Source: Asterionella formosa (taxonomy: Eukaryota). From it: 61,133 nt of DNA. The notes beneath the pieces were generated by a model that did not search any database, was not told the DNA's origin, and was given only the letters and a program-made list of their open reading frames with translations. The DNA lies in NCBI GenBank assembly GCA_002256025.1, contig NKIB01013264.1:1-61133 (forward strand), given 5' to 3'. The translations under genes were made by a program, and so were the position numbers. Positions 3,601 through 48,854 of this stretch are shown here, piece after piece. Positions within the stretch are counted from its first letter, which is position 1, and every line of letters starts with the position of its first letter.

Positions 3601-4276
3601 TATAGGAGTGACTTACGGTAGCTGCTAAAGTGCGTGTTACAATATCATACTCCGTAGTACGATGCAGAATACTACAGTTCCCAATCATCTCATCATGATT
3701 GATAAGATGATAATGTGATATCATGATAGGTTTACATCGATGCATACATCACCAAAGTATGATACATAATATTGAATAAAGTATATCACATAGCTATGAT
3801 GCATTGATCATAGAACTGTGATGATTTCTTAAAATGTTTATGATATAATTTTGATCAAAATATGATCATGTTAAAATAATACAATGACAATAAAATACGA
3901 TAAATATGTACGCTAGTGTTATCGATACATCACAGAATATAAATAAATAAATCATAGTTATGTTACTAAATATATAAATTCGACTTTTAATGTATACAGT
4001 AAAAGCCAACAGTTAATATGATAGTATTATATGGTGGATAGGATCTAAGGATACGGATGCCTTGATATGTACATCACTATAATATGATTTGTGATATGGA
4101 TTGATGCATATCACATACCGGTATCTTCAACAAATAGCCATCACGTTCATTGTCATGTCGTTTTTCCTTGTTATAGCTGTATTTATGCCTGCATGTGTAT
4201 TGTGTAAACACTACGCTGGCGGAACATGCATATTACACTGCTGTGCTCTGTTCAACAATTACTACACTCGGTTACC

Positions 4277-4615
4277 TGTTGGGAAAATGCGAGCTGACTG
4301 CCACAGGACAGGAGGAGTGAAGGGTATAGTAGAAACGAGAGAGAACAGTACGGTAAAGCCGTTACCAAGCTGTACCTGGGCTGACGTGGTAAAAGGCACG
4401 ACGCAAGCAAAAGCAATCAGAGGCCAGGAAATGTTAAAATGCAATGTGAGTAATAAGAGTGTTTCAAGACCATTATCTCGAAACAATCTAGTTAGTAAAG
4501 TGAAAGGTTAAGTTGACGACTTCTTCGTTACTATCAATTTCATCAACTGTATTCGATTGACACAGTACAAGGTTCAAGGCCTACGATACAGTCGATTACG
4601 GTAGTTGAAACAACA
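4277..4615 (+). repeat. Putative 5' LTR of copia element 1 (339 bp)
   Basis: Starts TGTTG and ends CAACA, directly upstream of the leader and gag ORF. Same terminal motifs as the paired LTRs of copia element 2. No partner LTR in the window. Confidence 0.65.
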
Positions 4616-6547
4616 TTGTTTCGAGATAAAAATAAAAAAAAATAAAAACATTAAAACAAAAGGAACCAGCCGTTTTGAGACTCACATAGAAGGCTGGAGT
4701 TTCGACATCTCAATCGCGGAATTGTACATTTTATAGATTTGAATAGCGCAGCTTAAGGCCGCAGCCACCAATCAAGGAACCAACAGCGACAATTTGAAGA
4801 GATTTGACCAACAAACCCCATGAGCGCCACCCCAGACGCAATGAGCAGCGGCAGCTTAGCGAGTGGACGCGGCAGCACTGGTGGGCGAGGGCGAAGGGAC
4901 AACCGTCTGCGCGAGAGCCATGGCGGGCGGGCAAGGACACAAGCAACAAGCAACAACCGTGGCATTTTCAAGGGCAGCACAGAGGGCATGAACGGAAACG
5001 TATTTGAATGCTATGAAGAACAAAGTGACAGACGCCAGTACGCCAAAACGTTAGAAGTTCTAGATGGATATGTGAGGAAAACACTGAAGTACTCTGAAGA
5101 CCTTGCCCCCCCCCCTTTGTTTGCCGACACCATGGCGGTTCCCACGGTAGACATGCCAGATGACCTAGATGATGATGTAGGACTGACCATGAAAATGATT
5201 TTCGCAGAAGAAGTAAAAGCGTAGCTATGTCAAGCGCAATCGTACCCTGAAGAGCAACCTAGCGACAGTGTATGCGGTGATTTGGGGCCAGTGTAGTGAT
5301 GACATAAAGGCAAAGGTCAAAACGCATGATGGCTACAAGGACAAGACTGCCAACAACTTTTTTTTTGGCTTCAAAAACAGATCAAGTCGATTACTTGTTT
5401 ACAGTTCGATCAGAGCAGGAACGGTTTCATTGCACTTTTGGACGCTCAGACCAGCTTCCTCACTTGTTGTCAGTTACAAGGACAGTCCACAGAAGAAGTG
5501 TTTGAAAGGATGAGCTGAGACCATCGAGTACCATGGCGGCACCATGGCGGCACCATGGCAGCAAATTATAAACTGGTACCCTTCCAGGATCAGGACGGGA
5601 ATGGGCGTAGCATTGAAGAGCGAAAGGAGATTGCGTGTGAACGCACCCTCGCAATCGCTTTGATTCGAAGTGCTGACCGCACCAGGTATGGCACCCTCAT
5701 CGCTGACCTATCAAACCAGTATGCAATGGGAAATGACCAGTACCCCACCGATTTGCTGTCAGGCCAAAGCCTGCTCGTCAACTACAGAACTCCAACGAAC
5801 ACCAATGTCAGGACAGATACACCACGCACCCAGCCGACTGGAAGCCCTGAGGCCAGTGCAATGACCTTTGCGCAATGCGGCGAAATCGCAGGCAACAATG
5901 GAGTGGTACACGATGGCATCATCTGTTACAACTGCCAAAGCCTAGGACACTATGCGGGAGACTGCCCTGACAGGCAGGGATCGACAACCTCAGGCACTAC
6001 ATTGACGCAGTATGCATACATGCTTGCACAGGCCGGTGACCCTGGGATTGATCCTAAGTGGATCCTTCTCGACTCGCAGTCGACAATCGCCGTGTTCAAG
6101 AACGCCGACATGCTCAGCAACATCCGGCGTAGCTTTCATGTACTCAGGGCACTCACAAACGGGGGTTACCAGGAGTCCAACATTGGTAGGAGATTTTCCC
6201 AACTTGGTAAGGTTTGGTACAATCGTGAATCAATTGCCAACATCCTCTCCCTTGCTGAGGTGCGCAAGGTATGCCGCGTCACCATGGACTCTGCGGACAA
6301 GCCAGCGATGCTTGTCCATAGACTCGATGGAACTGTGATGAAATTTTTTGAGCACCCCCCAGGACTATATGTCTTTAGTTGTAATAACGATACTAACGAC
6401 AGTGTTACAGGCTATACCATGCTATCCACAGTAGCAGAACAGAAGAAACTATTCTCACGACGTGAAATTCAATCAGCCAATGCAGCCAGAGATTTGTATA
6501 GAAAGATCGGGCGGCCTGCCAAGACAGAATTCCAATCCATCCTACGT
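4277..6547 (+). mobile_element. Ty1/copia (CoDi-like) LTR retrotransposon, 5' part only, frameshifted
   Basis: Gag-like ORF from 4820 (FKGSTEGMNGNVFECYEEQSDRRQY); CCHC knuckle CYNCQSLGHYAGDC; protease motif WILLDSQST; pre-integrase region ARDLYRKIGRP..EFQSILR, then abrupt loss of homology at ~6547. Confidence 0.9.
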
Positions 6548-6899
6548 GCCTGTGAATTAAGACGTTCAAGAAGGTGCATTGGTTGAATATTGATGGATTA
6601 GGGGAATCAGTATTGGGAAACCAACATTCCCGAATGGTGTGGTAAAGCTAAATGGTGTTTTACTTTGCATGACTGGATTGGTTTTTGCAAACATATATAC
6701 CCAAAGGAATTCCTCAAACCTTCATATCCTGACTTTTTAACTTTAAAAAATTGTAGTAAGCAAGCTAGCTAGCTTTATACCTTATGCACAGTGCCATTAC
6801 AATGTCTTTCCATAACATGGCAATATGAATGATTGATATGGCTGGTTTGATGATTACTAGTGAGTTTACAATTATAGTTTCTATGTCAATTTCAATTGA

Positions 6900-20069: not shown

Positions 20070-23000
20070 CTAAATCTCAAACCTGCTATCATTATCTCCA
20101 TACGGATCGTACTTTAAATTTTCCGCAACAGTCGCTGCTACTCTCGATGCATAGTAATCGTCGTCGTATGAAGCTTGCATGGCTTCCTTGTAACGACGAT
20201 TTCTAGTCGACGCATCTTGGGGTGGAGGCCTTAATGAAATCTTGGTGGAAGTCTTCTCAATGACCAGAGGGCTTCTGGAGGAAAAAGGGGAAAAAGGATT
20301 ATCACTTTTCCCAAAATTGAAGAAAGAATCATCATCATCATCTACAATAAAAGGATCAAACACATTCTTCTGCTCTATTGACGAAGAGATTCCAACAAAG
20401 TTGTCATTGGCCCGGGGAGAAAAGGGATCCTGATCTTGTGGAGGGTTTCCATTTGAACTAGAAGGAGCCAATGCTGATGACCCACTTTGCGATCGATTAG
20501 AAGATATTTGCTGCGACTTAGGTTGCGGAGATTCATTCGGCATCGCCTTTTGAGACGAGCCGTTAGCGGACATATCCTGCCTTTGTGTGGATCTACTTGG
20601 CGAGGAGTTCATGGGCATCCTTGCGTTAGCTGTAGAAGGTCGCAAGTCCCGTGGAGCCATTAGATCCTCCTCGGTAACACCATCGGAGGCTGACGTGTTG
20701 GCCGAAGACGCAGATGAATCGTCATCACGTGAGGCAACCAAATAATCTGGATCCTGGTCACCCCAGCGGTCTTGGTCAACATCTTCGTGATCAGTGTTTT
20801 GAAAGTACTGCAGAATGGATACAGCTTCTCTCGGTGTACGCGGCGGCGACGTACTGTGAGCAGAGACCACCTGTGGACTGTGCATTTCCTGCCAATCCTC
20901 GATCGCAGTGTCGCGCTCTAAAGGGCCTGGAGGGTAATCATGTTCGCTTCCTGCCCCAGATGATGTCGGGTAATCCAAGGCAGCGCCCGCCTCTACTTGA
21001 TCCAACATTTGTACAGCGGTAAGGGCGTCGTGGAACCGTACCGACTTCTTGTCAATATCGTCTCTCATCATTCCTTGTCCCCGATACGACTCTTTTAAGA
21101 CTGGAGGAGCTCTGTTTGGAGATCCTTTACCGGTTGGGGAATTTCCCCAAATGCACGCTTCGATGGTCTTTGCTCTAACTGAAACAGGCAACGGCTGCTC
21201 AGTCATACTGTCACAGCCTGCTGCACCAAATGAGGTCGGGTCATGAAACAAAGCAGATGAAATAGCAGTTGAACCAGCTTCGCTAGCTCCTGCATTGAAA
21301 CCTTCAATATTCATCCCGACAAGATGATGTAAGCTTGATGAATCAAGGTTCCGATCCATTGTGGTATGAGCTGACCCTCGCATTTGATGCCATTCCGGTG
21401 CTCCACTCAGCTGATAATTGCCTTCCTTGTTTGAAGACTCGAGCCCATCGTTCATTGCAGATTCATGGGTGGAACGATTCCCTTCAATGTCCTGATTTGG
21501 ACTCTTACGACGAGGTGAAATGGTAGAAGTTAAATTCCGTTGATATGCAAATTCTATTTTTCGATCAAAACTGCTTGTTTGATCCTGAACTGCATCAGGA
21601 CCGAGAAATTCAGTTTCCGAATCAGAAACATGAAGATTTAAAGGGTCACTCTCGACTGATAATGCGTTTTCCATCGAACTAGACTTATCAAGAATCGATT
21701 GGAATTGAATAGGCAATTCTGATTTCTTCGGAGTGGCACTTGTATTCCTCGAATCACTCTCGTCATATAATTCTTCTGAGTCTCGAAATTGGAGTTGATT
21801 GAGACCATAATCAGTTCGTATCACTGAATCAGCTGCCAAAGCAGCAAGCGACTTCACCGGAGACTCCGTGGCGAAACGGGGGACCATTTGGCTTGGCGGA
21901 GGACGAATCAAAGCATCTTTAGTTATCGATTCTGGAGCACTCGATATTGTAACCTTTGTCCCCATAGGAGAAGAAATCCCTTTCTCCTGGACTGGCGAAG
22001 AAATCGTGTCACTCGCATCCGATGCTTCTTGACGGGGTGGCCCTATATTGCTTGTTTGACGTGGCTTTGTCACTGGAACTGCTGACCAAGACTGGACCCT
22101 GCTAGAGCCGGCATCTTGTGATCTCTGATAAAATTCTCGTTGCTGCAATGTGGGTATTGATTTATGAGCCCAAGAAGGCTTTTTAGAATCTGATGTAATC
22201 TGACCAGCTGAAGGTGCAACAGAAGATAAGGCAGATTGGGTGGACAGGGGAGAAGGGCGTGTCTTCCAGGAATTCGATGGCAACACTGCTGAAGGCCCGA
22301 TTTTTGGTTCTCCTGGAGATGAAGGACGGTTCATACAGTTCTGTGCTGTTCCTGGAGAAAATGGTACCAAGGAGGGTAGAGCAGCAGAGCCATCGCTTGA
22401 ATACAATGATCTACTTGCCTGCATAGTATGCGCCTTGAAAGATTTCCCATGATCTCCATTCGACGATATCCAAGTTTGCGCAACAACGTTTGTACTGCTT
22501 GAAACACCATTTTTTTGTGATCCACTACTAGCAACTCCAGTTGCTGCTCGCTTCACTGTCGCTCCAAAAGCTGCTCTTAACATGGCCACAGTAGCTGGCG
22601 ATTCGGTTTCAATTACCACGCGATCATCACTTACACACGGCGGAAGCGAATCTGGTTCTTTCCCTGCAAGCTCTGGAGACGGTGGATTCGATTCACAAGG
22701 CCTCGTCCCCTGCGGCTGCCATGGCTCAAGCTTAGAAGAAGACAGTGTCTCTTGCTTTTGAGCCCACGGCGCAGTCTGCCGAGAAATAGAAGAGGTACTT
22801 TTCCGTTCAAGCACTTCAGGAAACTGGGCATTGGTCGGAACTTGTGACTGCTCTGATCTTGTGCCTATTTCATGTCGCATCGATGCTTGCTCCTGCTTTT
22901 GCCAAGGTTGGTCATGCCTCGCATCCTCGGTGAGTCCAACTGTCGTCAATGATGCACTCAACAGATCTACAGGAGGTTGAATATTATGAGTTGAGTTTGA

Positions 23001-24722
23001 CGAACTTGGTTTTTGCCAAGAAGCAAACGACTTCTGCTGGTGCTGCGGAGGAGGCCATTGTCTGGCCGGGGATTTTGGCTTAGTTTCTTGCGCTGTCTGC
23101 TGCGACACTGTTGAGGTTTTTTGCAATGATGGTTGCTTTACCTCAACCCTTTCTTTGCTATCATTCACCTGTAATGCTCGCCATGGTGAGATTTTGCTTG
23201 GCTGTTGAACTTCCTGAGCTGGCGAGCTTTGTCCTTGATGCTGCTGTGACGCTGTTGTTCTTGTCCAAGATACTTTCCCTTGTGCGCCGCCTTGATTGGA
23301 CATATACGCAACTGGAGTATGACTTGCTTTCAACGACATCTGAGCAATTCCCCCCTTCTCCGGAGTAGAACTAAGCAACGGACTAGAAAGCTGTTTCGGT
23401 GGAGGCCACTGGGGTGTTTTTGGCCTGTCTTCCTCAGCCGAAATGAGAGGAGTACTACTCCCGTTGTCCGAAGGAGAAGAAGAAATGAAACTAGGACTAG
23501 CGATTTGTTTCGGTGGCGGCCACTGTCGAGTTCTTGGTTTTTGCTTGTCATCACTTTCGGGATGCGGGTCCGCTTTCCCCTGCCACTTTTTAGAAGCACC
23601 TTGACTGAAGGACTTCATCTTTGTTGTTGCATGCGCACCCACAACATTCTCGTCGATGTCGCGCGATGGACTTGACGCAAGCTTTCTCATGTCGCCAGAG
23701 TCGGAACAACTCGACATACTTGCTTCTTTATTCGTTATATGATTGATCAAAGGCTCATTAACCACTTGAAGCTTCGTCGATGCCGATGGCTTCCGTCGTA
23801 GTGAATCTCGACTCCACGGAGCGGCTGACGTCAAAGGTGGATGTGCGAGAATGCTGCGCTGACTTCGATCTGTTAGTGATAAGTAATTTTGCTGGGGTAT
23901 AGATTCCGAAATGATTGGAGCTAGTTCTGACGATGCTTGCCTTATAGAATTTGTTGTTGATGGTGGTAATGCAGGTTTCGACATCGAATTTACCATCGAC
24001 AACGGCGGCGCCTTCGACGACAGAAAACTCCGACTTCGTTCAGCATGACTTGACGAAATGACTAAATTTTGATTCTGATTCGCTCGTGACGAGCTGTCGT
24101 CGTCGATCCTCATTTCAACAGTAGCATCTTGAATGTGAGTATTAACAGTGGGAGTGGATCTAGTGGATATTAGTGCCACCGCCTCTATCCTGGTTGGAGC
24201 AACAGACCTAGACCTCCAATCCCCACTTAATTTTGTGAAAGAGGTTGAAGTGACTTTTTCGGTAGACGATTCAACTCGATAGGAGGATAATGTCGGAGGC
24301 GAGTCCTCCATCGGCTGTGAGTCAGTCCAATTTGGAAAAGGTCGCGGAGGCGAACCATGTATCATCGAGGTTGGAGAGCATCCTCGTTCCTTGGACCGGA
24401 GTGGTGAAGACATTGGACTTGAACAAGGAGAATCTTTAAGTTGTCGGCGGTCATTAATTCTGTTCCGTCGCTGTGAGAGCGATTCTCCAGCAAGCCGTGA
24501 CGGCGCGGACGCTATTGATCGTTCTTCGGTGTGTAATCCCTTTGCCTTGCCAGCTTCCAAAACATCAACGAGCTTGGTTTTGCGAGTTTCAGTGGGCGCT
24601 TCTTTCGTAACTGAGGCGCTTGTCGACGTGACCGACTGAGATGACATCATCGCCCAATGTCGATGTTTCTTCGTTCGCTGCAGTCGCTCTGCCATTCGGT
24701 CCGATCTGCTCCGGGTCGCCAT
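20070..24722 (-). CDS. Large Ser/Pro/Gln-rich, probably intrinsically disordered protein (~1550 aa)
   Basis: 4.65-kb intronless ORF; first ATG at 24722 (MATRSRSD). Three QWPPP repeats and C-terminal DPF/NPF motifs; no globular domain recognised. Confidence 0.85.
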   Translation of the reverse strand: MATRSRSDRMAERLQRTKKHRHWAMMSSQSVTSTSASVTKEAPTETRKTKLVDVLEAGKAKGLHTEERSIASAPSRLAGESLSQRRNRINDRRQLKDSPCSSPMSSPLRSKERGCSPTSMIHGSPPRPFPNWTDSQPMEDSPPTLSSYRVESSTEKVTSTSFTKLSGDWRSRSVAPTRIEAVALISTRSTPTVNTHIQDATVEMRIDDDSSSRANQNQNLVISSSHAERSRSFLSSKAPPLSMVNSMSKPALPPSTTNSIRQASSELAPIISESIPQQNYLSLTDRSQRSILAHPPLTSAAPWSRDSLRRKPSASTKLQVVNEPLINHITNKEASMSSCSDSGDMRKLASSPSRDIDENVVGAHATTKMKSFSQGASKKWQGKADPHPESDDKQKPRTRQWPPPKQIASPSFISSSPSDNGSSTPLISAEEDRPKTPQWPPPKQLSSPLLSSTPEKGGIAQMSLKASHTPVAYMSNQGGAQGKVSWTRTTASQQHQGQSSPAQEVQQPSKISPWRALQVNDSKERVEVKQPSLQKTSTVSQQTAQETKPKSPARQWPPPQHQQKSFASWQKPSSSNSTHNIQPPVDLLSASLTTVGLTEDARHDQPWQKQEQASMRHEIGTRSEQSQVPTNAQFPEVLERKSTSSISRQTAPWAQKQETLSSSKLEPWQPQGTRPCESNPPSPELAGKEPDSLPPCVSDDRVVIETESPATVAMLRAAFGATVKRAATGVASSGSQKNGVSSSTNVVAQTWISSNGDHGKSFKAHTMQASRSLYSSDGSAALPSLVPFSPGTAQNCMNRPSSPGEPKIGPSAVLPSNSWKTRPSPLSTQSALSSVAPSAGQITSDSKKPSWAHKSIPTLQQREFYQRSQDAGSSRVQSWSAVPVTKPRQTSNIGPPRQEASDASDTISSPVQEKGISSPMGTKVTISSAPESITKDALIRPPPSQMVPRFATESPVKSLAALAADSVIRTDYGLNQLQFRDSEELYDESDSRNTSATPKKSELPIQFQSILDKSSSMENALSVESDPLNLHVSDSETEFLGPDAVQDQTSSFDRKIEFAYQRNLTSTISPRRKSPNQDIEGNRSTHESAMNDGLESSNKEGNYQLSGAPEWHQMRGSAHTTMDRNLDSSSLHHLVGMNIEGFNAGASEAGSTAISSALFHDPTSFGAAGCDSMTEQPLPVSVRAKTIEACIWGNSPTGKGSPNRAPPVLKESYRGQGMMRDDIDKKSVRFHDALTAVQMLDQVEAGAALDYPTSSGAGSEHDYPPGPLERDTAIEDWQEMHSPQVVSAHSTSPPRTPREAVSILQYFQNTDHEDVDQDRWGDQDPDYLVASRDDDSSASSANTSASDGVTEEDLMAPRDLRPSTANARMPMNSSPSRSTQRQDMSANGSSQKAMPNESPQPKSQQISSNRSQSGSSALAPSSSNGNPPQDQDPFSPRANDNFVGISSSIEQKNVFDPFIVDDDDDSFFNFGKSDNPFSPFSSRSPLVIEKTSTKISLRPPPQDASTRNRRYKEAMQASYDDDYYASRVAATVAENLKYDPYGDNDSRFEI

Positions 24723-26863
24723 GACAGTTCCTCGAAAGTCTTTTGCTTGCAATTCTTTGTCTTTAGTAGGCTAAGGGAAATATTTTAAAACGGCAATCAC
24801 GTCAATCAAATTTGGTACATAAGCTGGCGAAGGTCTGTTCAGCGTGTTGTTAATACAGAGGAATCGCCGACGTTTCCCGTTCTTCCTCCTGTGCTGCAGG
24901 TGGTTGTCGAGAGCGACAAAAAGAGTACAGGCGTATTATCATAGCTGTTAATTAGATCGTAAGATGTACTCCGAGTACAGTATAGCAAACCCTGTGGCTG
25001 ACGCCTTGACTTTTGTAGGAGGGGAGGAACTGAGCCAGCAACATCAGCATGGCTGGAAGCATTGGGGACGCATACTACCGATAATATTATAATTTATTGC
25101 GCAAGGAAGATTATGCATATAAAAAGCATAGAGGACCTTCCTTTACGACCGCATTGTTGCAGCGCGCGTAGTATCGAATTGTGCGTTGAGGATGCCATAG
25201 GTATGCTGCCATGCTTTTCAGCCTATCATGCAAACGTGAATGCTGACGAGGGAGGATGCTAAAGTCAAATGACCAACCGTCTTCTTAAATTATGTACGGT
25301 ATATAGAATCAATCGAAACGGATACAGTAGCAGGCAGTCGCGAAGGCGCGCAGGCAGGGGTTTGCATGGTTCCCTGGTTACCTACCTGGCGATTCCAGCT
25401 CCTCCAGCTATCGTCCTGTTGCCACTCGGGAACCTGTGCAAGTTGCGGTATTTTTGCTGAAAACAAAGATTTAGTTATCTTTATCCCATGGCAGAGAAAT
25501 ATTACAACGTGCCCCAGGTAAGCAAAGTCATTCAATAGTTAACAGGCACAGTATGGTGGAAATATGTATGACCAATCCATATGTATGTTGAACGACCCAT
25601 GCATGGATTTATATCGGGCAGCCAACACCTACCTGGCTGGTACCTGGTACCAGACAGCAGTAAAACCAACAGGATATGAAATTAATTAAATAGCACACAT
25701 TAGTAGAATTAACATTTGGTAAACGTTTTTCTCTGTGTCCGGCGATGATTGGATTCGTCATGATTTGCAATGCAGCTGTATATATTGTGTTTCCACTTTC
25801 CTTTACAACCCAGATCGAAATGTTAGTTTAAGCAAAATGACCACAACTTGCTCTGGTAGTCTACTTCTTATTCCCACCATTACAAAATGTACATATAATG
25901 ACTCCTACCTTGGTTGGACCACACTTATCCATAGCTAATACAGAAAGAACTGATAATACATTGCAACACGGAGCAGATGACAAAAAATATTGTAACTACA
26001 GTTTACAAACAATATGTAAATTACGACTCACTATCACTTCATTTCAACCTCAACCAAATGATAGAATGTAGATGAAGTGATTCATGAATATTTAATAGCT
26101 AGCTAGTATTAGAAGCCTCAGTTCTACTTGTTCTGTCGACAATTGTTCATTCATTATTGCTTCATCAGGTGGCTACTTGAACCAAATTCCCTCATTCATT
26201 TCAATAACTAGCAATTCATTTGAATCAAAGTTTCAAAATCAGAACTTGGTACATACTGACATGTATGTATGCGCAGCCATCAGGTACCGGTATTACTCCA
26301 TAATATACTGGTAAGTCATACCCGTCCAGTATCATTCTCTATTTATCTACCGGTACATCAATCTCCACGTCCGGTATTTTATATACAGGTAGACGAACCA
26401 TTATTCCTGGTACTCCGAGTACCGGAGTACCAGGTACTCCACCACCAGGTAAGTACGGAGTATGTAACAGGCCCCAGGAAAGTGGTGGTAGATTCAATGC
26501 ATCACATACCAATCTCAATCTATGGTATGCACCATCAGAATCCATCATCCGTTTTACTCTGTACAAAGGTATTGATTGCAGCAAGCCATTATTAGGTTTT
26601 TTCTGCACCTAAAATTCCAAGAACTGAAAAGGAAGTTTAACTTTGTCTATAGGCTTGTACCAACAACATTTGTCTGTAGGACGAGAAAAAATTCTCAATC
26701 ATTTCCTGAATATTAGGTGCGGAATAACCTTGGGCAGTTTACTTAGCCTGAAATTCCCCAGCTTCTAAGTAATTTTTAGGCTCTAAGTCATTTGTTAAGT
26801 CATTTTTATTTAGGGGCACATCGAATTTTTCGGGCATGAGAATTGCCGATTTTAGCATGACAG

Positions 26864-29005
26864 CCAAGGCATGAAATAGATCACGAGCTTGCTTGGATCT
26901 TTCAAATTGACGTTCAGTGTAGAATGTTTTGTTTTCTTCAACTGTATTTAACATTTGAGAATTTTCTGCCTTAATTGTTGTAGGAGGCTTGAAAACATAT
27001 AGATTCATCCCAATTCTTTCAAATCGAACTGGTTTGTCAGGCAAATGAACAATAAATGCATCTTCTTTCTCAGAGTTGTAGATAATTCTGTATCTATCTG
27101 TCATTTCGGCACAACTGAAGATGTTGGTGATTGCCTTGTCATTGAATAATACTTCTCCCTATTGTGGAAGATCAGCCTTCATATTAGTGACCATGGATCG
27201 ACCATTTGTGGCCAGGTGCAAGTTTCCGTTAGTCGGCACTCGAATGTTTTCAACAATTTTTTGATTGCAAAAGACTGTTACACTTGATTGATTATCCAAT
27301 AGTATCCAGTCTCCCATCTCAGATGCTTGATCAAATTGTAGTTTGATATGAGCTCCCGCCCATCCAACTCGATTGACATTCGCTTGTTGTGAAGCTTGTG
27401 ATGATGGTGGGTTGTTGATATTAACAGAGGTAACCGTACTCATTTCCGATGTAGTAGCCTGTGCATGGCTTTGTTGGGCCTTGTTGATTGCCCATTCCTC
27501 TTTGGGTTTATTCTTTTTGCGACATGACAGTGATTTATGTCCAGCTCTTCCACAGCAGTAACATTTTCCTTCTAACTGTGCAAACGATAAGTTCACATCT
27601 TCATCATCCTTCCCTGCATCCTTTTGTTCCCTGTCTTTATTATGATATCCTGGTTTCTTGTGACTGTTGGGTTTATTTGTTACGTCGAACCTGTGGTTAC
27701 TGAGAACATTATTTGATTCTGTGATACTCTTTGGGTATTGATCATTGCCGAGTGTTCAGCCCGGTCATAATTGATCCATATTTGGCCTTATCTGCATTAT
27801 CGAGGTATAAATAGGCCATAAATTGACTGAAAGCTTGTTCGCGAAATTTATCTTGTAGCTTGATGTCTGTCTTGTTGTACCCATCCATGGCTTCAATGAG
27901 CTTGGTGAGGATAATGGGTCCTTCAATGTGTGACTTGAGCACATCTTGTGCCACACAAAACCTCTTGGTGTAGTCTTGTAGACTTTCTCCTTCTTTTGCT
28001 TTGTATGTAAAAAGCGTTCTCATTGCATCTAAAATGATCGACATTGAATATCAATTTTCTTGAAAATTTATTGCGTGTTCTTTAATTGCCATAAGCAATT
28101 TTATTGGGTTATTTTAGATCCTATTGTAATCGGTTCTCGCTTCAATCTTGTTCTTCATGGCTTTGTTGCATCTTTCCCAGAGCAACGCATATGCCTTGGA
28201 ATTATTGTTTTCGTAGGCCTGTACCCTTTTACTGTAGGTGTCATAATCAGCCTTGAACTCAATCTCATATTGTCGATTCTCTGCAGCGGGATCTTCTTCT
28301 GTTGTTGCAATGCTCACTTGCATTCTTGGCTTCCATGCCGATGTGTTAATTGGTTCTAACAACTTTAGCGCCGTTCCTATGTCGTTGCCATAGTCGAACA
28401 CTTTCTTGATGTAGTTGATGAGGTACTCAGTAGTAGTCTCATAATCAGATGCCTGCTCCACTGATCCGAGGTAGTAGTTATAGTCATTAACTGACTTCTT
28501 GATGGTGTGAGAAGCATTATTGCTCCCTCCCTTGGCTTGAAACTTGCCCTTGGCCTGAGCCTTCTTGGAAAACTTTCCTTTGCCACTCATGATTCGCCTT
28601 GTGCGATTTCTTCAGACTCTGGTTGTCTGGTACCCTCAGATCTTGTCTCCGGACTCTCAACGGTCCACCTGTTGTTGATTGTAATATTACGGCTCTTCCT
28701 TGCCAGCTAATTCTACTAAAACAGTTGAAATTGCGTCCCAAAGCCCTCTATTGCTTTCTTGTATCCTGTAAGGACACGTCAGGGAACAAATAGGCTGTAG
28801 ATATGAACAACGATGTTGCAGTAATCGATTTTAATAGTTCCTAAGAGTTTTAGTAGAATTATGGATTTTACTGGCGATGCAGAGGATTGTTTTCGAATTC
28901 TGAGTTTTCTCTGGTAGTACCATATTCTTTTTTGATTCATTCAATTCAATATGTAGTAGGTAATTCATACCGGAATTTTTCTTTCCTAAAATAATTTCTC
29001 CAACA
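26864..29005 (-). mobile_element. Copia element 2, 5' half (5' LTR, gag, zinc knuckle, protease), inverted
   Basis: Gag ATG at 28590 (YYLGSVEQASDYETTTEYLINYIKK); knuckle CYCCGRAGHKSLSC; protease WILLDNQSS; ends at ARDLFHAL at 26864. Confidence 0.93.
28723..29005 (-). repeat. 5' LTR of copia element 2
   Basis: Reverse complement aligns end to end with 34063-34339 (about a dozen substitutions, two short indels). Preceded by GTCAT on the element strand (ATGAC at 29006-29010). Confidence 0.95.
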
Positions 29006-29904
29006 ATGACCCGCCGGAATGTTTGGACTTTCAAGGAATGGGATCAAGATCAACATCATGGTTTGAAAATTTGATTGTGTGCAGTGATGAGGGTATCACT
29101 CAGAAGAAATTAAAGTATGGCCGATGACAATTAACCTGCCTTGTCAATTGCGTTGGGTGTGGTGTGGCATTGGAGCATGGTAGTGCATTGAATGTCATGT
29201 TGTTGGTGTGAATGATTTAGCTCATAATGATTTCATTTTTTGGAAATCATTCAGTTGCTGCTTTGGCTGGTGGAAAGAACAAATCCGACTGGCGATTCTT
29301 GTTCGACTATGTGAACAGGGGTAAATTACAAAAGGCATTGAGTTTCATTGAAGATAAGTGGAAGCAAGCAAGCATATACAACAATTAACAGAACTTACCA
29401 CTGCTTGGGAAACGTTTTGAGACATGAGGAACATTGCAGCTATAGCTGCTGGAAGGATCAAAGGTGATGCTGGTTCCTTGGATATTTGGATTGTGAGTAA
29501 GATATACATTGTCGAGATGTTCTATTTGAAAAAAATATATAGTTTGATTGTTGGCATTACCGTAATTCTCATGGAAGCGGCCATACAACAATCAACAGAA
29601 CATATCCTAATGAATCAACCAAGACAACAGGCGCAATTTCATGATTCCTGTTTTCAAATAGGGTCTTGTTTCTTTTAGGGTACCAGAAGTGGCTTCTGGT
29701 TTGCGTTGTCATTGTCGATTTACAATAATGAAGTAAAAAAGATATTTGTGATTAGATAACCTACAGAAACAATGCTATTTTAGAACATTGGAAAAGCCAA
29801 CAATTGAGCACTAAAACTTGCTGCCGAGCGCTGATTTGATATAGTACACGTAGAAAATAAATCATAGCATTATAGTTAAAATTTAACGGCTGATTGTCGT
29901 GACA

Positions 29905-30918
29905 ATTCCCGCTCCAGCTGTCGTCTTGCCATTCGGGTGCTTATAAGTAATAATTTGGCTCTAAGTAATTTCTTAAGTAATTTTTATTTAGGGGCAATAT
30001 GGGGCACATCCAATTGTTTGGCAATAAAAATGCCGATTTTGGCATGACAGCCAGAATAACGGCATTGTACCGGCGCTGCAAGAAGGTCAACCTGCAAGGG
30101 TTTCCCAAGCCTTGAACACAAGAATACTCGCAGGCAGTCTCCACCCTCGGTATTGTCTTACTACCTTCAGAAGGCATGTAGCCATCGAGAAGGGTATTGT
30201 TGAGACAATTCCCGCTCCAGCTGTCGTCTTGCCATTCGGGTACTTCTAAGTAATAATTAAGCTCTAAGTATTTTTTATTAGGGGCAATATGGGGCACATC
30301 CAATTGTTTGGCAATAAAAATGCCGATTTTGTCATGACAGCCAGAATAACGGTATTGTACACAGAAATGGTAAAACAAGCGTGAAACAAACGAGAATGAT
30401 TGTAACATGCAACATCAATGAAAATTGAACATGATGTTTGGAGCAACTAAAGTATGAAATGCGATGTAATAAGCAGCGTCAAATGAGAAATAGAAAAACT
30501 GTTTTGGGTTAGAAATGAAGTAAAAATATAGGAGTTTTAATGGAGACATATGCATTGTGACGTTGTAGTACTTACACAGGCAAATACATAACGATGCAGA
30601 TCTCAATCGGGTTCAGCTTTTTCTTCTTTTCTGCATTTTTTCGGTCTTCGATTGTGTGATGGAAAGTCAACAATATTGCCTGTGTAAGTACTACAATGTC
30701 ACAATACATATGTCTCCATTGAAACTCCTATTTTTGCTTCATTTCTAACCAAAAACAATATTTTCTGTTTCTCATTTGATGCTACTTATGGAATATTTCA
30801 TATCACACTTTGGTTGCTCCAAACATAATGCTCAATTTTCATTGATATTGTATGTTACAATTATCTCATGTGTTTGATGCTTGTTTTACCATTTCTATGT
30901 ATACTACTGTTATTATGG
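29905..30918. repeat. Cluster of the dispersed GGGGCAATATGGGGCACATC repeat family, including a ~240-bp-arm inverted repeat
   Basis: 29905-30070 duplicates 30205-30360; 30340-30582 is the inverted complement of 30676-30918. Related copies at 26760-26866, 34860-34915, 43840-44310 and 58270-58680. Confidence 0.85.
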
Positions 30919-33900
30919 GTACACCGTCAATTAAATGATTTCAAGACAATAATTCACATGAATACGATCAACAATAGTCCAGTGACTACCAATGATATCA
31001 AGATTGCCGAGAAAATTTTCGGACCTGACGTCGGAACACTAAAAGGCAAGACAATTCGTCGCAAGCTGCTGCCAGTCATGAACGACTACATCGAGATTCC
31101 TAAAGAGCTTATCAAAGCTCAACGCGAAGTGACTCTTTGCATGGATGGAATGAAAGTGAATGGACAATCATTTCTCACAACAATTTCTCGAAATATTATG
31201 TATAGGACAGCACGATGGGTCAAGAATCAGACAGCTGATGTCTATCGAGATGCTTTGACTCAGGTGTTCCGTGTTTATAATACCGGAGGATTTAAAAATT
31301 ACAACAATCCACTGTGACAACGAGTTTCGACCTTTGATGGCACAACTTTCCAATTAATTTCAAGTCACTTTGAACTACGCAAACCCACAAGAACATGTTC
31401 CTGAAGCGGAGCGAAAAATCGAGTGATTAAAGAACGCGTGCACGCAGCTTATCATCGATTACCTTTCAAACATTTGCCTCAACTGATGATTAAGATTCTA
31501 GTCACAGAATCTGCAAAGAAACTGAATTTCTTTCCGGCAAAGAACAGGATATCCCCGTACTTCAGTCCTCGTATGATTTTTCATCAATGAAACCTGGACT
31601 ATGCTCGACATTGCCAGTATAAATTTCGCACTTATGTCCAAGCACATGACGAACCGGTGTTTTCAAACACTAATGCACCACACAGCCTAGATTGCATTTA
31701 TCTACGCTACAATGACAACGTACAAGGAAGTCATGAATTATTACACCTACCTACAAATTCATTGATCACTAGACGAACAGTTACTCCTCTACCACTTACC
31801 CCAGCAGTCATAAATCAAGTACACGCCCGTGCTGTGTAGGAAAATATGCCAGATGGTCTCAAGATATCAAATCGAATGGGACAAAAATGTTATGATAGTG
31901 CTTGGATTGCAGGAGTGCATTATGAAAATGAAGCATTTGAAGATGCACAAGACAAAGATTATGAAGATCAACAAGCTAGTGACGATGAAAGCAATGATGA
32001 CATTCTCGGAGAAGACTATAATGAAATGACTCCGGATGAAATATATGAAGCAGAACAGCTTGAATTAAACCATATCCAAGAGGATGACCCTGAACATGAG
32101 GGCAACAAAGAAAATAATGTTGAAATGAATGCAGATGAAATCCAAGATGAGGATGAAGAACCAGTAAATGAAAATGAAGAGGCAATGTTAGAAGTGAATC
32201 CAAGCACTGAGGATGACACAGACCCAAATGTTAGAACTGCAAGGTCTGGAAGAGTCTCAAGACCACCATCAAAACTAACTATAGTCCAACATCAATTGCA
32301 TACCCGAGCACACTGTCAAGAAGAATACACAACTGATAATGCGAAAGTGATCACAATGACAATGTGTTATCTGAATGAGATGTCTATTGATATAGAAGCA
32401 TTTCACTTTGTTCAGTCATACAGCTTAAGAAAAGGCCTCCAGAAATTTGGCCAGAAAGGAAGAGATGCTGCGTATAAGGAAATGAAACAACTACATGATA
32501 GAGTTGTATTTGAACCGATCAGGATTGAAGACCTAACAGAGATCGAAAAGCGACGTGCAATGGAAAGTCTAATTTTTTGGTTGAAAAGAGAGACAAGAGT
32601 ATTAAAGGCAGTGCTTGTGCCAATGGCAGTTCGCAACGTGAATACATGGAAAGAGATGAAGCAGCTAGTCCGACTACCATGACTGAATCTGTTATGATAA
32701 CAGCAACAATTGATGCAAAGCAAAATCACGATGTTATGACCGCAGATATACCCAATGCATTTGTGCAAGTGGATATCGATGAGAAATGAAAAGGGGAACA
32801 AATCATTATGAAGATTAGAAGTTTACTTGTCAATATGTTGACAGAACTCAGCCACGAGCCTTATGAAAAATGTGTTGTTTATGAAGGCAATAACAAGGTC
32901 CTATATGTTAGGATGATCAAGGCATTATATGGCATGTTACAGTCATCATTGTTCTATTACAAGAAACTTCGGAAGGATATTGAGTCAATTGGATTCAAGG
33001 TCAATCCATATGATCTATGCGTTGCAAATCGCATTGTTAATGGCAAACAGCACACAGTTACTTGCCACATAGACCATTTGAAATCTAGTCAAGTGGACAG
33101 CAAAGTGAATGATCAATTTTTGGAATGGCTCAAAACGAAATACGCTTCTGACGAAATTGGTGAAGTCAAGGTCATGCGTGGAAATAAGCATGATTATTTG
33201 GCAATGACACTAGATTACTATCTTCTAGGATTGTTGAGGGTGGATATGACCAAATATGTGAAATCAATTATTGATGATTTTCCAGAAAAACTTCAAGGTG
33301 CCGGAAAATTTCCATGGACAGATAAATTATTCACTGTTGATATGAAATCAAAGAAACTTGAACATGAAAAAGCAAAAATATTTCATACTTTTGTTCTGAA
33401 AGGAATCTTCCTATGTAAGCGAGGAAGACAGTACATTCAACCAGGAATTGCATTTCTGGCAACCCGAACTACCAAACCAAATGAAGGTGATCGGGCAAAA
33501 TTAGTCAAGATCATGAATTTCTTGAAAGCAACTCAGAATGCGGTTGCAACTATGAGTGCTGATGACACTCAGAGCATTAAATGGTATGTTGATGTGGCGT
33601 TTGCAGTACACAAAGATTTGAAAAGTCACACAGGAGCTACATTGTCACTTGAAAACGGAATTATTTGTTCTATGTCTACGAAACAGAAAGTGAACACTAG
33701 AAGTTCGACTGAAGCAGAATTGGTTGGTGTCAACGACATTATATCAAAGGTGTTGTGGACGAAATTATTTATTGAAGCACAAGGACACAAGGTAACTACG
33801 AATGTCATTTACCGTGACAACACTAGCGCAATGAGGCTAGAAGAAAATGGAAAAGCAAGTTCAGGAAAACGCACACGACATTTCAACATCAAATATTTTT

Positions 33901-34339
33901 ATATTACTGATCTTATTGAAAGAAAGGAAGTACAAATTAAGTACTGTCCAACGGATGCAATGATTGCAGACTACATGACGAAACCACTGGTTGGAACGAA
34001 TTTTATTCATTTTCGTGAGCAAATTATGAATTCAAAGTGAGCATCCGTGTCCAGCAGGAGTGTGTCGGAGAAATTATTCTAGGAAAGAAAAATCCCGGTA
34101 TGAATTACCTACTACATAGTGAATCGAATGAATCAAAAAAGAATATGGTACCAGAGAAAACTCAGAATTCGAAAACAATCTACATCGCCAGTAAAACCCA
34201 TAATTCTACTAAAACTCTTAGGAACGATTACAATCGATTACTGCAACATCGTTGTTCATATCTACAGCCTATTTGTTCCCTGACGTGTCCTAACAGGATA
34301 CAAGAAAGCAATAGAGGACTTCGGGACGCAATTTCAACA
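30916..34339 (+). mobile_element. Copia element 2, 3' half (integrase, RT, RNase H, 3' LTR), degenerate
   Basis: IAEKIFGPDVGTLKGKT; integrase IHCDNEF and EHVPEAER; RT TADIPNAFVQ, KALYGMLQS and HIDHLK; RNase H WYVDVAFAVH, SSTEAELVGV, DNTSA, RTRHFNIKYF and ADYMTKPL. Copia domain order. Confidence 0.95.
34063..34339 (+). repeat. 3' LTR of copia element 2 (277 bp)
   Basis: TGTCGG...TTCAACA. Preceded by the short purine-rich AGCAGGAGTG and followed by the TSD GTCAT (34340-34344). Confidence 0.95.
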
Positions 34340-35225
34340 GTCATCTTTCTCCTTCTCCTGTAACATCACGCCGAACCGATGCCAACAAAGTTTACAATCA
34401 CGCCCGTGCTGCTTGCTACCTCCACAACCACCACAAGTCACAGTTCTTCCAGCACCATTGGCTCCCGTGCTGTTTTAACTATTGGTTGCTGCTTCTCCAG
34501 GCCTGATTGGACATTTCATTTATTTTGCTTCGACAACATGAGAGAAGTGTAAGTTGGCAATTGTTGATGAACATGCATTGACAATTTTTCAAACGAATTT
34601 TCCATTAACTCAATTTCTTTTTCACTATTTATTCAACTCCCTGATCGTCATTGTTGCTTCTTAACTTTTGATTTCCATTGCTTAAAAACATCATCTCGAA
34701 ATTTTCGATGCTTGTTACAATCATTCTTGTGTGACTATTTTTCATGCATATTTGGGGCTCCATCCATTTTTGATGTGGCTGCTTTCGCATCAAGATTCTA
34801 CTCCTGATGTTGCTCGATGGTCCCTGCTGCTCAAACCTAAAATTAACTGCCGAAAAATCCACTGTGCCCCTATATTGCCCCTAAATAAAAATTACTTATA
34901 GATACTAAAACCTACTTAGACACCCACAGTTCTCATCGAAAAGCAAGACGATATCTACTTATGGTGTGTATTGCTCTTACAGACGTGTACACGCAGGCAT
35001 GCGACCACCTCGGGCATGTATAAATTGCCTTCAGCAAGATCACAATACGCGTAAGCCTTTCCTTTTACTTTGCCATTGTGTCAAACAACAGTAAAGAGAT
35101 TGATGATAAAAACGAGCCGCAAACAGTTTTCCACGCAGCATTACGGCTTACGATCCGACACGCCCATGAATCATTCTTCTTGGCGTTGATAGCAGGTTTC
35201 TCTTTGAAAGCACTATTGTCTTATT

Positions 35226-43839: not shown

Positions 43840-44820
43840 TTCCCGCTCCACCTATTGTCTTGCTATTCCTGTACTTCTAAGTAATTTTAAGCTCTAAGTA
43901 TTTCTTCAGTAATTTTTATTTAGGGGCAATATGGGGCACATCGAATTATTTGGCATTAAAATTGCCGATTTTAGCATGACAGCCATAATAATGGTAAAAT
44001 ACATAGAAATGGTACAACAAGCGTAAAACACATGAGAGTGATTGTAACATGCAACATCAATGAAAATTGAACATGATGTTTGGAGCAACTAAAGTATGAA
44101 ATGTGATGTAAAAAGTAGTGTCCAATGAGAAATAGAAAAAATTGTTTTGACTTAGAAATGAAGTAAAAAATAGGAGTTTCAATGGAAATGTGGTATGCAT
44201 TGTGACATTGTAGTACTTACACAGGTAACATTGACTTTCCATTACCACACAATCAAAGACCGAAAGAAGAAGAAAAAGCTGAATCCAATTGAGATCTGCA
44301 TCGTTATGATGTGTAGATGATCTGGTTGCTGCAACCTGACACTAATAGCAGTATTTCCGCCACAGTCATTCCTCCCACCAAACAAGCAACCCTGATCATT
44401 CCATTCTGAACGAGCATGATCGCCAGGCTGCTCCAGCACTATTGACTCTCTCTAGCTGAGTATTGTTACGTAGCTTGTGATACGAACTCTTAGTATAACG
44501 ATAGCAAAGCGCGTTAGTACAAGAAAAGCATGCATTGCTTGGCGGGAATATTGACATCATGGTCAACGACTATACAGATCAACAAATAAGATCAACAATG
44601 GCACGACAATACATCTTCAAAGAGTAGGAATTGCTACATACATATGCCCTTGTGTAGATAGTTACAATCGAATCAAAACGACAGTGCGGAACAACAAACA
44701 ACGATGGAAGCGATCAAAACGGACCATGGAAGCAATCAAATCGGAAATTCGACAATCATATCTACGATCACATTCAGTGTTTGAATGTTGTACTCACCGA
44801 TCCGCTCTAACAAGCGTAAG
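43840..44820. repeat. ~1-kb dispersed repeat, high-identity inverted copy of ~57712-58680
   Basis: Long near-identical reverse-complement match; spurious ORFs 44057-44248(-) and 58263-58496(+) are nearly identical. Confidence 0.9.
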
Positions 44821-45239
44821 ACGCAGCAGACAATGGGCTCATAAAAAAGTCGAAAGTTCCTTTAGCAAGCCCGAATTGAGCAACGGCAGGCAGGATAGAG
44901 TGAGAAGGATAATTGTGAGGACGAAATCGGGCATGCATAAAGTACGTAAAATCAATCAATATATTTAATGTGAACGATATGATATAACATTCTGGTCTCG
45001 TAAAAAAAATACTGAGTCTACAGCGATAATATTATAACGTGTTCATAGTAAGCGTTAAAGTTTAGCTTAAACCATGCATGGTTGTTTCGAGTACCACGTA
45101 TGTATGTATGTATGTATGTATTTATTTATGTATGAATGTATGTATGCTAGATGACTATCAGGGTACCAGGTACCGGGAGAACATCCGTGAGGAATCATGA
45201 CATGCATGACAGGAGCAAAAACTTGCCACCAACATCAGA

Positions 45240-45940
45240 TATGCACCGATATCATCGTTCGTCCAACGAAATATGGACGATGCGACTACATGAATCCCTC
45301 GAGAAGACAAGCAATCCAACAACCAACCGCATCCGCTAGACAAAGAATCGCTACTGGCGTCATCACTGAACTGATTTCGCTTCAAACCGGTCATGATGGA
45401 TGACGATCGGCATGGTGAAAGGTGAAATGCCGGAGTCCACTTTTCAGGCGACGACCAAAAACGAGGTGAATTCTAGATATAAATTATTAAAATCTATAGA
45501 GTATATAAAAAGGTTTCCTTAAGTAGACCCTTGCCAATTTCGGCAATCCCAGGGCTGGAAAACCGAGGGGCAATTGGAACTAATTGTAATGCCAAAATGG
45601 GAACCTATGAAATATCTAAAATATATTTTAATGATTGGCAATATCGGACCCATTGCAAATTTTGATCTTAATATATGAAATATTCGAAATATCTTTTAGG
45701 ATGGGCTATAGCGAGCTAAAACTGATATTTACACTCAATGATTGGGCAGTAGGTAAGCGAATGGCCCGACGATAGCTAATTTGTGAACTGCCTCAACAAC
45801 ACCCTTCTCGGTGGCTACATGCCTTCTCGTACACATGTGTACTCGCAGGCATGAGACCACCTCGTGTATTGCCTTCAGCAATCTGTGGCCGGGTTCGGAC
45901 GTGTATTGCCTTCAGCAATCTATGGCCGGGTTCGGACGTG
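45240..45940. repeat. Dispersed repeat modules also present at 57020-57710
   Basis: 45240-45585 is a direct copy of 57020-57315; 45600-45880 is an inverted copy of ~57330-57710. Ends with a 37-bp tandem duplication (45864-45937). Confidence 0.85.
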
Positions 45941-46061
45941 TTGCTATCATCCTCTGTCATGCTGGCACTGTATTCATTTACTCTTGTCGCGTCATTCCGA
46001 TTGTGCGTTTGCTCTGTACAGTAGCGCCATTGCACTTTTGGTTCCTCCAGTCTTCCCAACT

Positions 46062-46832
46062 ATGCATAGAAGGAGAGGAATCGGTGTCAGCCGATCGGCA
46101 GGCCCTAAATTCCAAAAGAAGGCCGATGAAATGAAAGCCACCTCGCTACAGTCAGCCCTCGAAACTGTTGAAAAGCTCGAAATAAAGCTGACAGAATTCG
46201 CCAAGAAGCACGCCAAAGAGATTCAAAACGACCCTGCATTTAGACAAAAATTTCTTCAAATGTGTGCACCCCTGGGAGTGGACCCTTTGCTCTCCAAAAA
46301 GGGGTTCTGGGGCAACGTTCTTGGCATGGGCGATTTCTACTACGAACTAGCTGTCAAAGTAGCAGAGGTCTGCCTTGCATCAAGATCAAGAAATGGTGGT
46401 ATTATTAGTATCGCTGAAGTCAAATCAATTCTTTCCGCGCGGAAGACAAAATTTCAGCTTGGGGATCAGACAACCAAAAAGTACTCTGGTGATGACATCA
46501 AGACAGCAATCCAGAAGTTGAGCAAACTCGGAGGCGGCTTTCGTACTATTGAGGTTGGAAACTCGACTATGATTGTATCTGTTCCAACTGAACTTGACAA
46601 TGACCATATGGAAATCATGGGTCTTGCTCAAGCCTATGCAGGTTCAGTATCAATCGAGCAAGTTCGAGATGGGATAGGTTGGAATGACGATCGTAGTCAG
46701 CGAGCCCTCAATCTTCTCTTAGGACAAGGTATGGCTTGGCTGGACGAGCATAAGGGGCAAATTCTGTATTGGTTTCCTAGTATTTGGAAGGAAGGTGTAA
46801 ATTTAGGCTATGGTACGGAAGGTAATCAGTAG
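46062..46832 (+). CDS. SNF8: ESCRT-II subunit VPS22/SNF8/EAP30 (256 aa)
   Basis: MHRRRGIGV...FAKKHAKEIQNDPAFRQKFLQMCAPLGVDPLLSKKGFW...GDFYYELAVKVAEVC...NGGII...SVPTELDNDH...GMAWLD...YWFPS. ATG at 46062; the ORF-track extension upstream is repeat DNA. Confidence 0.95.
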   Translation: MHRRRGIGVSRSAGPKFQKKADEMKATSLQSALETVEKLEIKLTEFAKKHAKEIQNDPAFRQKFLQMCAPLGVDPLLSKKGFWGNVLGMGDFYYELAVKVAEVCLASRSRNGGIISIAEVKSILSARKTKFQLGDQTTKKYSGDDIKTAIQKLSKLGGGFRTIEVGNSTMIVSVPTELDNDHMEIMGLAQAYAGSVSIEQVRDGIGWNDDRSQRALNLLLGQGMAWLDEHKGQILYWFPSIWKEGVNLGYGTEGNQ

Positions 46833-48350: not shown

Positions 48351-48854
48351 CCTGTCGTGTGAATAATGATACAACAATACAACTACAACAAATTCTAATT
48401 ATCATGCAGAAGTGTCTTGATAGTAATGAGTTTTTCAAACCTTCCATGATGGTTTCCTCAAGAATTTACATGACAACCAAAAGATGCCTTCCATATCATG
48501 ATACACAATCAGTTGTTATCCAGTCAAAAGCAGAGACACCTTTGAAAATCGATTAAACATCAGTAAATGTAGTAAAGTCATTCTATTGCTTATAACCATT
48601 AAGTATGATAGCACATTCTTATTGTTAAGGATGAGAGTTGAACATTGCATTTTTCTTGTAGAAAGCAATGCTGTATGCTATGATAATACAAACACTAAAA
48701 TTATGATGACGAAATATTAAAAGTAAGATCATCTTGCACAACAACTTTAACAACTTTAGCATTATCATAATGTATAAAATGATAATCTGTTTTTTAGCCC
48801 ATTCCTACTCCCCTTTTTCAAGGCAAGTATTCATTGTGCTGCCTCCCAACAAGA

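Follow-up and report, generated by a model that had tools for sequence, protein, structure and literature searches.

In diatom genomes, copia-like elements rank among the major retrotransposons. How do they start reverse transcription? The diatom papers that we searched do not describe this step. Priming from the element's own RNA—self-priming—has, to our knowledge, been demonstrated experimentally only for Tf1. Here we analyze a 61,133-nucleotide stretch of Asterionella formosa DNA (GenBank assembly GCA_002256025.1, contig NKIB01013264.1, positions 1 to 61,133 of the forward strand; the whole stretch is called "the window" below) and, within it, a partial copy of a retrotransposon with long terminal repeats (LTRs), which we call element 1. 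A first-pass annotation had noticed that the place of the tRNA primer binding site (PBS) in this element is taken by 15 nt complementary to a stretch inside its own LTR. We find that this pairing is kept by dozens of relatives while its letters change, and we consider it probable that element 1 is a dead, diatom-type Ty1/copia copy from a family that initiates reverse transcription by self-priming, as Tf1 does.

The reference system is Tf1, in which the RNA's first 11 bases anneal to the PBS and cleavage by RNase H falls between bases 11 and 12 (PMC7175516); for Tj1, self-priming has been inferred from sequence (PMC4600332). These fission yeast elements—Tf1, Tf2, and Tj1, of the Tf1/sushi group—have no tRNA PBS. 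They carry an LTR-adjacent PBS complementary to an LTR-internal stretch taken as the start of the RNA, with a structured U5 between the two pairing stretches (PMC7175516, PMC4600332), and the diatom elements described here resemble them in the first two respects and, judging from single-sequence folds, probably in the third. Unlike Tf1, the diatom elements are Ty1/copia by their reverse transcriptase (RT), which is of the RVT_2 type and not gypsy; their duplex is 15 to 18 bp long, against 11 in Tf1, and includes the last base of the LTR; and cleavage and priming, demonstrated for Tf1, are for the diatom elements predicted from sequence.

Self-priming has also been proposed within the copia superfamily. 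The first-pass annotation had set the Tf1/sushi group apart from Ty1/copia elements, which it said normally use tRNAs. This holds as a general rule, but self-priming was already predicted for the plant copia lineage TAR by Neumann et al. 2019, who cite earlier proposals for Houba and Osr-1 (PMC6317226). The TAR elements are thus like ours in superfamily and in having self-priming predicted from their sequence, and unlike ours in being elements of land plants. A second comparison is the fungal copia element GalEa, which has no PBS but a Conserved Hairpin Site whose first base is the A that closes the 5′ LTR (PMC5445492). The diatom elements share with it the lack of a tRNA PBS and a site that opens with that final A. 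In GalEa, however, both halves of the hairpin lie downstream of the LTR, 12 to 41 bp apart, the first half (the 9-bp CHSeq1) is palindromic, and the authors report that they found no complementary sequence in U5 (PMC5445492). We considered a GalEa-type Conserved Hairpin Site for the diatom elements and rejected it: their site is nonpalindromic, and its partner lies 124 to 192 nt upstream, inside the LTR.

Among diatom elements, the closest described group is CoDi (Maumus et al. 2009), whose members are copia-like, have TG...CA LTRs, and duplicate 5 bp of the target (PMC2806351). Our elements share both features, and the named relatives closest to the gag of element 1 come from the diatom Fragilaria crotonensis. 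In its main text, the CoDi paper (PMC2806351) makes no mention of a PBS, tRNA priming, or self-priming; its Additional file 1 could still hold a PBS entry. Full-text literature searches returned no report of self-priming in diatom elements. The mechanism is therefore already known or predicted elsewhere, in Tf1 and plant TAR, and the literature searched yielded no report of it for diatom copia-type elements.

Results and Discussion

A Complementary Pair at the Edge of the LTR

Three features of element 1 are central to the argument:
4277-4615, plus strand: 5′ LTR of 339 bp, TGTTG...CAACA, aligned end to end with both LTRs of the relative L002
4473-4487, plus strand: upstream arm, the proposed self-primer and first 15 nt of R; exact complement of 4615-4629, covarying with it in relatives
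4615-4629, plus strand: putative PBS, with its complement in the element's own RNA, opening with the base that ends the LTR

A word search of both strands found the 15-mer at 4473-4487 (TTATCTCGAAACAAT) once per strand in the window, the minus-strand occurrence being 4615-4629, so the perfect reverse complementarity claimed in the first-pass annotation is real. Chance would supply 0.20 matches to this 15-mer in the window at two or fewer mismatches, and only 1 of 100 shuffles reached two. The same annotation was also right that no TGG-starting tRNA PBS adjoins the LTR: no TGG follows 4615. No tRNA gene was found in the window by ARAGORN, nor in the window and the loci of its relatives by our own script.

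Where exactly does the LTR end? The full-length relative L002, 89% identical to element 1, has two LTRs (98-450 and 5452-5804), and both align to window positions 4277-4615, giving the same boundary at 4615 as that first proposed. In the five relatives whose contigs contain the end of the 3′ LTR (L002, L013, L033, L051, and L062), ...CAACA is followed by unrelated flanking sequence. The final A is therefore part of the LTR, and the complementary site opens with the last LTR base. In L062, a 5-bp target duplication, CACAG, flanks TGTTG...CAACA on both sides; a purine-rich CCGAGGAGCG stands just before the 3′ LTR in both L002 and L062.

The closest public protein to element 1 is P0004, a polyprotein of 1,642 aa (89% identical) with a copia-type RVT_2 domain at residues 1072-1306. 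About 750 residues, corresponding to the protease and integrase region, separate its zinc knuckle from the RT, although Pfam calls no integrase domain there. An RVT_2 domain downstream of gag, protease, and integrase, TG...CA LTRs, and a 5-bp target duplication place the family in Ty1/copia (Pseudoviridae). Membership in the Tf1/sushi clade of Ty3/gypsy was considered and rejected, because neither a gypsy-type RT nor the order protease-RT-RNase H-integrase is found, the RT of P0004 being of the copia type. Several further gag relatives, 52 to 63% identical, come from Fragilaria crotonensis.

The Pair Is Kept across Relatives While Its Letters Change

How widely is the complementary pair shared? 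We scanned metagenome contigs with an alignment of gag and protease; 376 of 570 candidate stretches encode a relative, and the best 80 were kept, giving 79 loci. The N terminus of gag is present in 59 of these 79, and these, together with the window, were searched upstream of gag for a 15-mer starting at the A of ACA whose reverse complement lies 60 to 400 nt upstream, with two or fewer mismatches. Where at least 900 nt of sequence precede gag, the repeat was present in 28 of 31 sources and perfect in 23. Downstream coding stretches, used as a control, contained it once in 58 cases and shuffled upstream stretches in none of 31, with no perfect repeat in either. It was found in 9 of the 29 sources with shorter upstream sequence; in at least 4 of the remaining 20 (L006, L019, L020, and L057) the AACATT site lies so near the start of the contig that the arm would fall outside it.

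These frequencies bear directly on whether the match in element 1 is a product of chance or of misassembly. Perfect pairs of this length do occur for other reasons: a scan of the whole window for the same design returned the pair of element 1 and one unrelated perfect 15-nt pair at 51.3 to 51.5 kb (51511-51497/51323-51309, minus strand), which lies in a short dispersed repeat. Yet the design turned up in 28 of 31 sources, as opposed to none of 31 shuffles and one coding stretch in 58, and it recurs in independent contigs from many samples, which leaves an accidental or artefactual origin with a negligible probability.

The sequences themselves differ among lineages. We counted 22 distinct post-LTR 15-mers among the relatives, each matched by its own partner inside its own LTR. 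The site of element 1 might bind a host tRNA or half-tRNA, as happens in Drosophila copia or the plant Osser and Bianca lineages, its match to the LTR being incidental. However, such a site cannot explain 22 different 15-mers that each match their own LTR; none of the sites starts with TGG, and they are AT-rich, unlike tRNA stems. No conserved tRNA-like site is present, and we regard a tRNA primer as very improbable.

We then have the column-by-column record of the pairing, an LTR/PBS covariation test across family copies that had been set beforehand. The alignment comprises 34 distinct segments, each including three extra bases on the outer side of the arm and three beyond the site, with three identical ones dropped. 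RNAalifold predicted exactly one helix from it, the 15 bp of arm and site, and no other pairs. Two-sided, compensatory changes occur in 11 of the 15 pairs and one-sided changes in none. Paired cells make up 98.2% of 510, compared with 71.6% in shuffles and with none of 500 shuffles reaching the observed value, although this percentage is partly so by construction, the 34 rows having been picked for carrying the repeat, and the independent figure, which is the one to weigh, is 28 of 31. When the partner is slid by one to three columns, the paired cells fall to 44 to 54%. A single G.U pair occurs in the 510 cells, a near-absence that fits a site copied from its partner. The test was thus strongly positive, and the covariation, together with the 22 different post-LTR 15-mers, supports the proposal in the first-pass annotation that minus-strand synthesis is primed from the element's own RNA. 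Because the pairing is kept while the letters change, self-priming is the most likely way in which the family begins to copy itself into DNA.

What covariation proves is that the two stretches pair and not that one of them primes, and the helix might instead be structural only—serving packaging, dimerization, or presentation of the initiation site—with another RNA, bound elsewhere, as the real primer. The U5-leader and U5-IR stems of retroviruses are comparable structural helices, and the apparently conserved hairpins between arm and site (see below) suggest that the region is structured anyway. Against this, the downstream arm sits exactly at the PBS position, starting from the last LTR base in every lineage, and nothing conserved or tRNA-like follows it. 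RNA helices maintained by selection alone usually show G.U intermediates, whereas here there is one G.U in 510 cells. We therefore judge a purely structural role unlikely, while giving it more weight than any other alternative to self-priming.

The Same Design in a Distant Copia Lineage

The window contains a second copia element, element 2, which carries the arm and site in different letters:
26862-34341: element 2, copia, split by an inversion, with gag and the 5′ LTR on the minus strand and pol and the 3′ LTR on the plus strand
28721-29005, minus strand: 5′ LTR, an inverted repeat with 34063-34341 at 93% identity
34063-34341, plus strand: 3′ LTR, an inverted repeat with the 5′ LTR
28458-26862, minus strand: gag, located by tblastn, about 27% identical to P0004 in gag
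30937-34028, plus strand: pol
28846-28861, minus strand: upstream arm of 16 nt, TAATTCTACTAAAACT, with CCA directly before it
28708-28723, minus strand: putative PBS, after ...CAAC, with 15 nt perfectly complementary to the arm

The sixteenth pair has been lost: the last LTR base is T in the 5′ copy, while CAACA is kept in the 3′ LTR. Because of this mutated first base, the whole-window scan missed element 2. In their letters, its arm and PBS bear no relation to the pair of element 1, so the design extends well beyond one family.

Structure between Arm and Site

In the window, positions 4472-4629 fold at −46.2 kcal/mol (z = −4.27 relative to shuffles), and the 15-bp helix closes two hairpins:
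4500-4543, plus strand: first hairpin of the interior (R/U5), its TTGAC-type loop region conserved, from minimum free energy (MFE) folds, with similar hairpins seen in relatives by eye
4546-4602, plus strand: U5 stem-loop, from MFE folds, with an apical stem 4570-4574/4578-4582

An imperfect stem in the U5-like region had been noted from the letters, and the MFE fold recovers it by pairing 4546-4559 with 4589-4602. Left unconstrained, the MFE folds of 31 of the 34 segments retain 13 or more of the 15 outer pairs. The apical U5 stem varies among relatives, by eye, as GGA/TCC, GAA/TTC, and GAG/CTC; RNAalifold predicted no consensus pairs in the interior from 16 segments in a MAFFT alignment that held the apical hairpin in two registers.

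Right after the arm, at alignment columns 19-28, 27 of the 34 segments (L017, L023-L029, L033-L040, and L043-L075) carry CCCATCGTAAGAACAGTTTGATTGAC, with variants, which forms the first hairpin. It is a possible marker of the poly(A) region or of the border between R and U5.

The Outer Edge of the Arm and the Proposed RNA Start

Does the arm coincide with the 5′ end of the RNA? The relevant feature is a short motif at its outer edge:
4470-4474, plus strand: CCATT, an initiator-like motif that reads TCAYT in 31 of the 34 aligned rows, with transcription proposed to start at 4472 or 4473 on the basis of the alignment and a diatom initiator-like consensus

Every one of the 34 rows has CA directly 5′ of the arm and C directly 3′ of it, and in 31 the CA is preceded by T, so the helix ends sharply. 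In about one-quarter of lineages, arms of 16 to 18 nt reach into the (T)CA, as expected by chance. An initiator-like consensus TCAH(+1)W has been proposed for Phaeodactylum promoters (PMC4686930), and the oomycete initiator is given as TCATTCC (PMC4368664); TCAYT at the start of the arm is compatible with both as they are reported there.

Two further properties of the LTR concern the arm. First, the length of U3 is variable (about 175 nt in L062, 196 nt in the window, and about 764 nt in L051), and the distance from the start of the arm to the last LTR base is steady, at 124 to 192 nt across lineages. Second, in 11 of the 12 loci examined, the position of the polyprotein stop ranges between 57 nt upstream and 22 nt downstream of where the arm ends (L060, with a broken frame, is the twelfth), and the reading frames differ between lineages; coding is thus not what conserves the arm. 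Taken together, the CA/TCA edge, the sharp end of the helix, the steady spacing, and the conservation of the arm for reasons other than coding point to the first bases of R, and the arm is probably the 5′ end of the RNA.

Transcription could also start farther downstream. The arm would then lie in U3, and the partner of the PBS would be the arm copy near the RNA's 3′ end or a second RNA, in cyclization or in priming in trans. Transcription certainly covers the copy of the arm in the 3′ LTR, since in some lineages the polyprotein stop lies past it. But a downstream start leaves unexplained both the invariant CA/TCA at the outer edge of the arm and the 124- to 192-nt spacing, held while U3 varies fourfold, and cutting a primer out of the 3′ region would separate R from the genome. 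We consider this arrangement improbable, more so than a purely structural helix.

A Model for Self-Priming

How would self-priming proceed in this family? Transcription would start at the conserved (T/C)CA, at 4472/4473, giving an RNA that opens with the 15-nt arm 4473-4487. Two internal hairpins would fold the R-U5 region and bring the arm onto the 15-nt site 4615-4629. The RNase H of the element would then cut after ...AAU, where the final primer base is paired with the terminal A of U5, and extension from the freed 3′ OH would proceed across U5 and R. After strand transfer, the plus strand would copy the attached RNA primer, and the PBS would in this way be rewritten in each cycle: the new PBS would be a copy of the parent's 5′ arm, and the arms of the new LTRs would derive from the parent's 3′ LTR. 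The rewriting step is proposed here by analogy with the general retroviral scheme. A PBS recopied from the primer would keep the pair perfect and free of G.U and would follow any change in the arm, and rewriting in every cycle would explain why the covariation is of the Watson-Crick kind only.

Several observations weigh against self-priming as modeled here. The repeat is lacking in three sources that have sufficient upstream sequence, L030 and L031 (one element) and L042. The initiator-like motif spans only five positions, and the subfamily of the window has CCA, not TCA. Among the 79 loci, none begins at the arm and none ends in poly(A); nor do the contigs of four metatranscriptome runs contain molecule starts or ends or a loose poly(A) end, although such contigs cannot show RNA ends. 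Finally, a third, PBS-like copy is present in U3, 0 to 20 nt upstream of the arm, at 4457-4471 in the window and also in L007, L008, L010, L024, L037, and L053. It has at least 11 of 15 matches in 7 of 17 lineages, compared with 1 of 210 noncognate comparisons, and it can pair with the arm as a local hairpin across the U3/R border (in L002, TGTTTCGAGA, a 6-nt loop, and then TCTCGAAACA). The simple self-priming model does not explain this third copy; one possibility is that it masks the copy of the arm located at the RNA's 3′ end.

Coding Content and State of Element 1

The remaining features of element 1 are as follows:
4278-4511, plus strand: part of the LTR that, in intact relatives, codes within the 3′ LTR for the polyprotein's C-terminal tail, with the stop codon at 4509-4511 and an open reading frame at 4095-4511
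4630-4819, plus strand: A-rich untranslated leader, read from the sequence, with the gag ATG at 4820
4820-6562, plus strand: gag with zinc knuckle, protease, and the start of integrase, with at least two frameshifts and truncated at about 6546-6562, located by open reading frames, zf-CCHC, and tblastn

In tblastn comparisons against the window, residues 1-520 of P0004 match 4988-6562, the remaining polyprotein being absent except that, unexpectedly, residues 1562-1641 match 4278-4505. By these matches, the polyprotein reading frame of this family runs into the LTR. U3 is in fact largely coding: a frame runs through most of it in the window (4278-4511) and in the 3′ LTRs of L002, L013, L016, L024, L029, L037, L043, L044, L051, L058, and L075. 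In element 1, gag, the protease motif, and the first part of integrase are spread over three reading frames, and the element has indels at 5222 and 5496 relative to RNA contigs. No second copy of 4277-4615 that could be the 3′ LTR was found in the window. With only residues 1-520 and the LTR tail matched and no second LTR copy, element 1 is, as judged from its sequence, a truncated and frameshifted 5′ fragment made up of LTR, leader, gag-protease, and the start of integrase.

The RNA data (metatranscriptome contigs with at most 0.10 of the words, those of four runs being compared with the window) also mark the outer LTR edge. Contigs from four metatranscriptome runs break exactly at 4276/4277, into another flank or into the context of pol and the polypurine tract, and the sequence continuing past 4276 in them has no match elsewhere in the window at three or fewer mismatches. 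The flank upstream of the LTR, 4100-4276, is covered by many RNA contigs from the four runs, with a summed word depth of up to about 2,200 in one of them; neither a reading frame nor a Pfam family was recognized in it. It is probably a repeated or highly expressed sequence that was the insertion target of element 1.

Other Features of the Window

Copies of a short dispersed repeat (GGGTCAATGCAGTTTTT..TGGTACC-like) lie in either orientation at 51309-51511, 51700-51725, 52354-52395, and 52746-52787; within 51309-51511 they yield the perfect 15-nt inverted pair mentioned above, whose halves are 188 nt apart and unrelated to any LTR. On the minus strand, 20070-24770 holds an open frame of 1,566 aa rich in Ser, Pro, and Gln, in which no Pfam family was found; we rejected it as a retroelement polyprotein, since it has no similarity to one. 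Host-like genes encode an EAP30/Vps36-family protein (45855-46832, plus strand), a PAP/fibrillin protein (58856-59890, plus strand), and a DEX1 beta-sandwich fragment (47757-48398, minus strand). Large inverted repeats, 44531-44821 versus 57707-58000 at 94 to 98% identity, flank the region of host-like genes.

Implications for Diatom Retrotransposons

What does the pair mean for the study of these elements? The elements described here offer a signature of a tRNA-independent start: (T/C)CA, a 15-nt arm, about 125 to 190 nt, and then ...CAAC and the complement of the arm. This signature marks the U3/R border and the probable transcription start, and it eases the finding and orienting of elements. 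It also explains how filters that require a tRNA-type PBS, such as the LTRdigest step used for Cyclotella cryptica (PMC7466962), can lose such elements.

A broader reading is possible, and we put it forward tentatively, with clearly less confidence than self-priming in the family of element 1. A large and old radiation of diatom copia-type elements, with at least two lineages (about 27% identical in gag), may replicate without a host tRNA. Its PBS would be rewritten from the 5′ end of the RNA in each cycle and never inherited as such, and the third copy in U3 would mask the 3′ arm copy. Self-priming would then be perhaps ancestral in this branch of Ty1/copia and not a rare exception, and annotation pipelines built on a tRNA PBS would be systematically discarding the main class of diatom transposons. 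For the mechanism itself, the diatom elements add a well-supported second copia case, and their Watson-Crick-only covariation provides, in natural sequences, a test of PBS recopying from the primer.

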